This document shows positions 1 to 825 of a stretch of DNA of 47,865 bases, in pieces; the stretch's first letter is position 1, and the number at the start of each line of letters is the position of its first letter. The translations under genes and the position numbers were made by a program. The DNA lies in sequence record OQ791282; one strand, written 5' to 3'. The stretch is from Shigella phage Henu10. The notes under the pieces are model-generated. The model ran no database searches, was not told where the DNA came from, and was given only the letters and a program-made list of their open reading frames with translations.

Positions 1-825
1 CGTATGAGTGCCGTTCTCTTTCATTTCTAATGCGTAGAAAAAAGCTGAACCTATCCCCTTAACAAAGGCTGATATTGTATATTCTGTGTTTTTCTCACAT
101 TTTATATTTTGGTCTATTTGATTGTAATCTTGTCCATCTATTGAGGTTATCTTAACTGCTCTTTCATTAGGTAGAAACTCTGCTTGTGGATACCCTTTGC
201 TCCAATGTTCTCCACCGTTTTTAAATTCAGTATTGCGAGCTAGGTTTCGACCATAAAAACCATAGCCACTTAATTCTCTACTTGGGATAGTCTTATTGAT
301 TGTTATATTCCCCTTTCTCGTTTCGTTTACTCCATCAATATTTACATCTATCCAAGATTGAGCATTAAAGGATAATTGCAAATCGCTACTGATAAGTTTA
401 AATACTTTTTTGATAGGGTTGGGGTCTTTCATTTTCAAAGTGAATACCCCTACCATTTTACCCTCTTTAAAGGATTTTTCAAGTTCTACTCCGCCAGAAA
501 GGTAAACATCAAATACTAAAGCGTTTCCTAAGTATTCTATAACCAACCTCTGTAACCCCTCTTTGTCAAATTCTGACAAAAGGGTATCAAAATTGGTTTT
601 CATTTGCGACCAAGTTTCGCCCTCAACCCAACCTTTCAACTCAATTTCTCTCTCGTCGTATTTGGGCTTGGCTAAATCTACCGCTTTGCCGTGATACTCC
701 GCCCAATCGTAAGACCGTCTAGATTTTAACTTAGGTTTATCCAAAAGCCCTTTGGATTCTGAAATAAATACTCCAAAATCTTTAAAATATTTGCTATTCA
801 GAATGTATAAAACTTCCTTTGTCAT
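1..825 (-). CDS. Tail protein (distal tail/fibre-associated), N-terminal part; ORF runs off the window start and continues in frame at 47738..47460 (joined product about 367 aa)
   Basis: ATG at 825..823 overlaps the stop of the upstream ORF (ATGA); minus frame open to position 1; translation MTKEVLYILNSKYF...GIGSAFFYALEMKENGTHT; C-terminal module repeats a domain of the 1452-aa fibre protein. Confidence 0.6.
   Translation of the reverse strand, partial: MTKEVLYILNSKYFKDFGVFISESKGLLDKPKLKSRRSYDWAEYHGKAVDLAKPKYDEREIELKGWVEGETWSQMKTNFDTLLSEFDKEGLQRLVIEYLGNALVFDVYLSGGVELEKSFKEGKMVGVFTLKMKDPNPIKKVFKLISSDLQLSFNAQSWIDVNIDGVNETRKGNITINKTIPSRELSGYGFYGRNLARNTEFKNGGEHWSKGYPQAEFLPNERAVKITSIDGQDYNQIDQNIKCEKNTEYTISAFVKGIGSAFFYALEMKENGTHT

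Follow-up and report, generated by a model that had tools for sequence, protein, structure and literature searches.

The window (the whole stretch of DNA analyzed here, 47,865 nt) almost certainly represents, in complete form, the genome of a RAP44-like temperate siphovirus that has Riemerella anatipestifer as its host, set out as a linear contig after assembly along a circular path. It is not a new kind of element: the phage group is known, and public assemblies of R. anatipestifer already contain an identical prophage. In biological terms the genome is complete and unremarkable, and its value is mainly curatorial (database correction), together with a putative gene conversion patch in its tail genes.

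Identity and gene content of the window

In BLAST searches against GenBank phages, the high-identity matches of the window were Riemerella phages only (among them RAP44 and the CRP and PJ series), and RAP44 covered 91% of positions 128 to 25000 at 98% identity. Nucleotide similarity to the RAP44-like temperate siphoviruses extended genome-wide and was accompanied by colinearity, with phage CRP12 colinear around the whole circle. PHROG and Pfam scans recovered the gene set of a full temperate siphovirus, from the small terminase to lysis, integrase, and repressor genes, lying mostly on the minus strand. The main genes outside the junction region were as follows.

19678-20160: small terminase
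18285-19583, minus strand: large terminase (Terminase_3 and Terminase_3C)
16813-18171, minus strand: SPP1-type portal
15770-16813: head morphogenesis protein
12380-13462: major head protein
1967-6148, minus strand: tape measure protein, 1393 aa (phrog_9959 match; TMP_3 in relatives)
822-1280, minus strand: 152-aa tail-module gene (phrog_10156 match), directly upstream of the distal tail protein (Dit) gene
41930-42451: holin
40855-41349: endolysin
38229-39545, plus strand: tyrosine integrase, 438 aa, 1,317 bp, intact
36685-37443, plus strand: repressor
Early region: ERF/YqaJ recombination genes

Closure of the circle

The closure of the contig turns on a 127-mer, here called R, which sequence comparison confirmed to be identical at both termini and at one internal site, as the first-pass annotation had reported, with no further copy in the window. 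The three copies are listed below.

1-127: R, left terminal copy, a probable assembly overlap, within the Dit-CBM gene; identical to 47739-47865 and 44002-44128
47739-47865: R, right terminal copy, redundant and dropped to close the 47,738-bp circle
44002-44128: R, internal copy, a real second genomic copy within the fibre (Tal) gene; prophage locus L009 has two copies

The longest terminal identity of the window is 127 nt, and none of the pairwise identities among the three copies ran beyond 127 nt, every side that could be compared beginning with a mismatch. Three identical 127-mers in 48 kb are not to be explained by chance, and R is the longest exact repeat of the genome. Removing one terminal copy leaves 47,738 unique bp (47,865 - 127). 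The end ORFs had been said to join in frame and do so: the minus-strand ORF that starts at 825 runs through 1/47738 to a stop codon at 47462-47460, giving 367 aa.

The sequence around the join was found in a chromosomal prophage of the host. When the window was rotated to read from 38253 through 47738/1 to 9734, these 19,220 nt matched JAMXVT010000005.1 at 100.000% identity with no gaps. In this R. anatipestifer chromosomal prophage locus (L009), there are exactly two copies of R, 3,737 bp apart, and the other prophage end (L011) was 100% identical to window positions 31907-38271. The att cores of JAMXVT010000005.1, at 70672 and 118410, are 47,738 bp apart, and the circular phage contig of about 47,738 bp that had been proposed from the window thus agrees with the att-to-att spacing of the chromosomal prophage. 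Four chromosomal loci (L009, L016, L023, and L011) tile the whole circle at 100.000% identity, the tiles being drawn from three different assemblies and not from one.

Phage genomes gave the same result. CRP12 crosses the join, with its positions 3562-5982 corresponding to window 45318-47738 (100%) and its positions 5983-14176 to window 1-8193 (99.7%), so that the join 47738/1 maps to CRP12 5982/5983, and the remaining circle is colinear with CRP12 as well. The join was also crossed colinearly by CRP19 and by the chromosomal locus L001. Hence, once one terminal copy is removed, the sequence is contiguous in independent genomes, as would be the case for a linearized circular assembly. An exact 54-nt pattern spanning 47738/47739 had no match in IMG/VR, so that this collection does not contain the source of the window.

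The first-pass annotation had noted that the third copy of R left room for tandem paralogy. In that reading, the ends of the window would be different loci, either at least three tandem paralogues or a prophage fragment with extra sequence, and the contig would not be closed. A third copy does exist, and contigs commonly end at unresolved repeats, but with two copies and no more in the prophage, a prophage length that fits the prediction to the base, and a perfect tiling, both tandem paralogy and ends from different loci are ruled out; the colinear crossing of the join and the completeness of the gene set also speak against them. We consider the chance that the contig is open in this way to be negligible. 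The outcome that would have told against closure, with the two ends turning out to be distinct loci that diverge outside the window, was not borne out, given that the join is contiguous in both prophage locus L009 and CRP12.

The Dit gene at the join

The gene that is restored by closing the circle consists of the two portions below.

1-825, minus strand: Dit-CBM gene, 5' part, codons 1-275 (phrog_6305 "tail protein," 1.5e-62; best fold search match, SPP1 Dit 2x8k)
47460-47738, minus strand: Dit-CBM gene, 3' part, codons 276-367 plus the stop codon, encoding the family-invariant C-terminal strands

On the basis of PHROG, gene order, and predicted fold, its 367-aa product is assigned as a distal tail protein with an inserted carbohydrate-binding module (CBM), that is, a predicted "evolved Dit." The gene lies, as had been pointed out, between the tape measure gene and the gene for a 1452-aa fibre, which is the canonical order of tape measure, Dit, and Tal; the stop of the 152-aa gene overlaps the Dit start, and the 152-aa gene has the same location in CRP12. 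Many full-length homologues of the joined protein were found, the closest of which (P0001) was 97% identical over 367 aa. P0001 was located on a 625-kb contig of R. anatipestifer as well as in phage CRP19, and in each it is flanked by the tape measure gene, with one small gene in between, and by the large fibre gene. In a 36-member alignment, invariant residues occurred both in the N-terminal part, for which the left end of the window codes, and among the last 25 residues, for which the right end codes.

The AlphaFold model of P0001 had a pLDDT of 82 and a pTM of 0.80, with a confident N-terminal domain and confident last three strands. When this model was compared with the PDB by Foldseek, the top match was SPP1 Dit (2x8k; E value, 2.9e-8), followed by tail-tip or baseplate chains of Bxb1, monocin, p2, TP901-1, Douge, and 80alpha. 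Both the location between tape measure and Tal and the Dit fold recovered by Foldseek, an N-terminal belt domain plus a galectin-like one, agree with a distal tail protein, and the Pfam Sipho_tail profile scored below threshold on the joined protein (16.7 bits; cutoff, 24.2). The middle part of the model matched CBM16/CBM22 modules with a target-normalized TM score of about 0.68. This module is of the CBM_4_9 type and is predicted to bind carbohydrate, since the Dit copy (residues 194-311) reached the profile threshold, if only just (26.0 bits; cutoff, 25.9), and a beta-sandwich CBM fold was matched by the model; the copy in the fibre scored 21.2 bits, under the same cutoff.

The Tal-type fibre and the wider repeat H

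The second gene that carries R is located immediately after the Dit gene.

43114-47472, minus strand: Tal-type tail fibre/spike, 1452 aa (family matches; identical protein P0109)

Its ORF starts 13 nt before the Dit stop, so that the two genes overlap. The domains are, in order, an N-terminal Prophage_tail domain, a first module (CBM-A), a GA-like coiled coil, a second module (CBM-B, which is the H copy described below), and a C-terminal domain. The Prophage_tail match (PF06605) covered residues 115-267 with 47 bits (cutoff, 31.3), and an N-terminal PF06605 domain in the gene directly after Dit is what characterizes a Tal protein. An identical 1452-aa fibre (P0109) is present on 8 to 9 R. anatipestifer contigs, and the CRP5 fibre was colinear through the internal copy of R; the full 1452-aa fibre was not found in any record of the phage collection searched.

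R is the core of a wider direct repeat of 451 nt, which we call H and which extends over 47541-47738 plus 1-253 in one copy and over 43804-44254 in the other. These are the two genomic copies, 3,737 bp apart.

43804-44254, minus strand: H, fibre copy, CBM-B module, fibre residues about 1073-1223 (CBM_4_9 match, residues 1076-1193)
47541-47738, minus strand: H, Dit copy, portion left of R, running on into 1-253 over the join
1-253, minus strand: H, Dit copy, R plus the right-hand portion, with a putative conversion patch at 6, 10, 13, 16, 43, and 46

The H copies are 94% identical, with 26 mismatches, none of them inside R, and their boundaries are sharp, similarity dropping to background only a few bases outside each end. 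Both encode the same carbohydrate-binding module, in two neighboring tail genes (Dit and the Tal-type fibre). Two other sources of such a repeat were considered and discarded. A strain-variant bubble was ruled out by the sharp end of homology after 451 nt on both sides. A diversity-generating retroelement, with its pair of template and variable repeats, was rejected as well: the mismatches are not adenine specific, the copies differing at all base types; each copy is part of the coding sequence of a structural gene; and neither the GenBank annotations nor family scans of 45 proteins of the window showed a reverse transcriptase.

Excised form, att site, and packaging

The attP core published for RAP44-like phages is a sequence of 19 bp, TCCCTCTCTCTCCGCAAAA, at nt 25-43 of the 1,317-bp integrase gene, and the integration site of these phages is the 3' end of tRNA-Ser (PMC12169736, PMC9745183). 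The window has this core at the same place.

38253-38271, plus strand: attP core TCCCTCTCTCTCCGCAAAA, single copy, nt 25-43 of int; position and sequence as in PMC12169736

The identity between prophage and window ended exactly at the att core on both sides, and beyond it were tRNA-Ser(TGA) and host genes, with tRNA-Ser(TGA) overlapping the att core at the prophage end in L009. The mid-window integrase without host flank, which had been taken as a sign of a free phage genome, therefore has a precise counterpart in a single attP core inside an intact integrase ORF, at which the identity to the prophage stops. Given the single intact attP in int and the end of prophage identity at the core, the window represents the phage after excision or during replication (the attP permutation), devoid of host flank, while the prophage form integrates at the 3' end of tRNA-Ser. 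The same two observations rule out an integrated prophage with host flanks. The earlier description of the genome as circularly permuted is correct for the contig relative to the prophage order; the virion DNA may be permuted as well.

Phages of the SPP1 and Sf6 types are headful packagers. The nearest solved relatives of the large terminase were SPP1 G2P (5e-9) and Sf6 gp2 (2e-6), both at the level of distant similarity, which together with the SPP1-type portal faintly suggests headful packaging of the virion DNA. The papers on GDF21 and the RAP44-like phages state nothing about virion termini.

Origin of the terminal 127-mer

Graph assemblers that follow a circular path through a repeat node yield contigs that begin and end at branch points, and 127 is a standard largest k in SPAdes. 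As the longest exact repeat of the genome, R would have been the branch point of the assembly graph, and the circle may have been opened there for this reason; the second terminal 127-mer would then be a mere overlap at the repeat and not a physical terminal redundancy. We infer that the 127 bp are an assembler overlap because the contig begins and stops exactly where the maximal exact repeat does and because 127 is a standard SPAdes k. That the exact repeat is precisely 127 nt long is a small coincidence that this reading leaves over.

The exact identity of the window ends could also reflect a physical direct terminal repeat of a linear virion DNA with fixed ends. However, such ends, which normally lie outside essential coding sequence, would fall midway in an essential structural gene (the Dit ORF), they match the limits of an internal exact repeat exactly, and related records were opened at many different places or marked as circular. 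The terminase and portal, moreover, are of the SPP1/Sf6 type found in headful packagers. The likelihood of a physical terminal repeat is accordingly minute, and an assembler overlap is retained as the probable explanation of the terminal copies.

The apparently truncated records PT03, PT15, and PT33

Three GenBank records matched the window without a single mismatch over their whole lengths. The vB_RanS_PT15 record (ON933637.1; 44,128 bp) corresponds to window 1-44128, with R at both ends as an untrimmed 127-bp overlap. PT03 (MZ995504.1; 44,001 bp) corresponds to window 128-44128, and PT33 (ON922917.1; 43,763 bp) to window 209-43971, with both ends inside H. All three run up to the repeat and close the circle on its internal copy, and they are without the following segment.

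44129-47738: segment missing from PT03, PT15, and PT33, 3,610 nt (3,737 with one R copy), encoding fibre residues 1 to about 1115 plus the Dit C terminus

In these records, the Dit and fibre genes are cut at the record ends and annotated merely as misc_feature ("similar to"). A closure at 44 kb would drop the N-terminal ca. 1,115 residues of the fibre, including the Prophage_tail domain that was present in nearly every Riemerella homologue listed. The junction that such a closure would create (44001-R-128) was absent from all the relatives compared. The "complete genomes" of PT03, PT15, and PT33 thus appear to have lost 3.7 kb through R, because of the 127-bp exact repeat, and the window would represent the resolved genome. 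A perfect R core could make short-read assemblies form a figure-of-eight, of which these three records would be the large loop (44,001 bp).

The opposite view would take the 44,001-bp circle of PT03, PT15, and PT33 as the true genome and the extra 3.7 kb as an artefact or prophage contamination or, alternatively, the 44-kb form as a real deletion derivative that arose via the 451-nt repeats. Three "complete genome" records do have that form and match the window at 100% everywhere else, a deletion of this kind could arise between direct repeats as long as 451 nt, and R lies in the same frame in both genes, so that the recombinant would hold an open fusion ORF. Against this, the end genes are truncated and given as misc_features only, and the ends of PT15 and PT33 within the repeat look like those of repeat-broken contigs. 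Furthermore, a form lacking the fibre Prophage_tail domain would lack what nearly every listed Riemerella homologue carries, the prophage, at 47,738 bp between its att cores, has both copies and a full fibre, and no relative has the 44001-R-128 junction. We therefore judge a genuine 44-kb genome to be very unlikely, and the 47,738-bp circle is the preferred form.

The missing stretch represents the N-terminal three quarters of the receptor-binding fibre plus the end of Dit, and for phage therapy or host range work on R. anatipestifer, it is the missing fibre gene that matters most. More generally, an exact terminal repeat may be a feature of the assembly, and an internal copy of it should prompt a check of the alternative closure.

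Gene conversion and module mosaicism

Over the 4.6 kb from 45318 to 2254 across the join, the window and CRP12 differed at only six sites (6, 10, 13, 16, 43, and 46), all of them inside R. At these six sites, the Dit copy of the window has the state of its own fibre copy, which is also that of the L001/CRP19-type Dit, and its flanks are of the CRP12 type. Were the patch absent, the H copies would share no exact run longer than 81 nt. The pattern of differences indicates that the perfect 127-nt core was probably made by a short gene conversion patch, between 41 and 127 nt long, that brought fibre-type sequence into the Dit copy; alternatively, another phage with a Dit of the L001/CRP19 type may have supplied it. 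It would be through this patch that the repeat reached a length sufficient to confuse short-read assemblies.

The modules of the two genes are combined differently among the relatives.

CRP12, CRP19, and L001: Dit module of the H type; fibre with the CBM-A type only
CRP5: Dit module of the CBM-A type; fibre with the H type
Window: Dit module of the H type; fibre with both CBM-A and H

Candidate examples of conversion tracts and cassette swaps between the two genes are the six-site patch of the window and CRP5, which has the fibre-A module in Dit and the Dit-type module in the fibre. A broader and more speculative proposal, to which we assign a low probability, is that the duplicated CBM cassette in Dit and Tal is an active recombination substrate, with conversion tracts and swaps that diversify receptor binding, and that recombination between the copies recurrently deletes the 3.7-kb Tal segment, generating 44,001-bp PT03-type molecules as real defective by-products and not as pure artefacts of assembly.

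Comparison with known systems

CRP12 (OQ834252.1; circular, 48,269 bp) and RAP44 (NC_019490; 49,329 bp) were colinear with the window at 96 to 100% identity and have the same gene order (tape measure, HigB-like pair, 152-aa gene, 367-aa Dit, and fibre). The fibre of CRP12, in contrast, has 1319 aa and is without the coiled coil and CBM-B (window 43845-44872), and CRP12 therefore has a single module copy; its fibre also has 650 nt that are missing from the window. The prophage in GCA_024124945.1 (JAMXVT010000005.1) was 100% identical over 25.6 kb from both ends, with the same repeat copies and the same 47,738 bp, but it has the integrated arrangement, with its ends at the att core in int and with tRNA-Ser and host genes on its flanks, whereas the window is the excised form with attP and int intact. 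PT15, PT03, and PT33 were 100% identical to the window but lack positions 44129-47738.

Beyond the Riemerella phages, the predicted Dit of the window resembles SPP1 gp19.1 in its location between tape measure and Tal and in its fold (match to 2x8k; E value, 3e-8). It likewise resembles the evolved Dits of lactococcal and Lactobacillus siphophages, which have inserted CBMs, in that a CBM-like beta-sandwich precedes the last strands. The similarity to SPP1 gp19.1 and the evolved Dits is one of fold and position, with a sequence identity of only about 10% and a subthreshold Sipho_tail score. In contrast to SPP1 and the phages of lactic acid bacteria, the phage described here has a Gram-negative flavobacterium as its host, and the same module is duplicated in the neighboring Tal.

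Candidate moron pairs in the tail module and beside attP

Two candidate moron pairs lie among the structural, lysis and integration genes of the window:

1432-1964 (+), HigB-like toxin ORF (PF09907, 3.7e-21) and HTH_3 protein
39587-40679 (-), SocA/Panacea-domain protein (PF13274, 3e-17) and 200-aa protein

The first looks like a toxin-antitoxin moron within the tail module, where it is flanked by the tape measure and a 152-aa tail gene and runs on the strand opposite to them. In the family scan, the match of the 57-aa HigB-like ORF covered profile positions 23-73 only, so the ORF is possibly short at the N terminus; the HTH_3 protein (120 aa) follows it. 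An ORF of 217 aa overlapping the pair at 1317-1970 (-) had zero family matches and is probably not a gene. As in the window, the pair is present in CRP12, a circular colinear phage genome, but it is missing from the R. anatipestifer locus L001 and from Riemerella phage CRP19.

The second pair is a candidate for a Panacea-type toxin-antitoxin system or a defence moron. It consists of the 170-aa SocA/Panacea-domain protein, overlapped by the 200-aa protein, which had no family match, and is flanked by the lysis genes and the integrase, next to attP. On integration the initial codons of the integrase gene (int) are replaced, because attP is located within that ORF. In the prophage locus L009 (locus positions 17928-19172) of R. 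anatipestifer contig JAMXVT010000005.1, int is called at 414 aa versus 438 aa in the excised form (window 38229-39545), a shortening that has already been described (PMC12169736).

Repeats in the window

Coding regions with repeated sequence include:

6291-9454 (+), moron block separating the tail genes from the tape measure
22775-23524 (-), second AntA/ANT gene, within inverted duplicates of parts of the moron block
31846-32622 (-), replication-region gene with a Phg_2220_C domain and an internal 12-nt tandem repeat

The moron block encodes one Big_2 and one DUF3800 protein, a protein of 130 aa and an AntA/ANT antirepressor. Some of its sequence recurs, inverted, in the early region at 22775-25557 (-): 334 nt at 91% identity, plus shorter segments (106, 112 and 70 nt) at 80-92%. 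The whole head and packaging module is bracketed by these inverted repeats, which could mediate inversion or break assemblies.

The GenBank deposit of the related "complete" phage GDF21 (PP067979-PP067983) consists of five pieces, each 3-17.5 kb long, and its assembly may have been broken up by the repeats seen in the window.

In the replication-region gene, a 12-nt unit (GTATCAGAAACT-like) is repeated about six times in tandem and in frame at 32246-32324. The called length of this gene differs between relatives (190, 203, 234 and 258 aa).

Between genes, at 6241-6263, 14623-14645 and 22374-22396, the window has copies of one perfect palindrome, ATTTTAAAA-CACGC-TTTTAAAAT, with a weaker copy near 18261-18292; none would be expected by chance. 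The copies sit ahead of the tape measure, head, portal and late-region operons, and the element may be an operator, a late-promoter element or a terminator.

Comparison with related phages

Product names in the PT03 record (MZ995504.1) appear to be offset by 1 or 2 rows from their genes; for example, "portal protein" labels a 67-aa ORF, "terminase large subunit" the head-morphogenesis gene, "terminase" the portal gene and "DNA methylase" the large terminase.

Regions 7643-8067 and 4806-5254 of phage CRP5 were compared with window 44876-45300 and 43804-44254. The module in the CRP5 distal tail protein (Dit) is of the type seen in the window as CBM-A, the first carbohydrate-binding-like module of the fibre. 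In the fibre of CRP5 the module is of the H type, the one found in the window Dit. Judged from these sequences, carbohydrate-binding cassettes are swapped between the Dit and fibre genes across RAP44-like phages.
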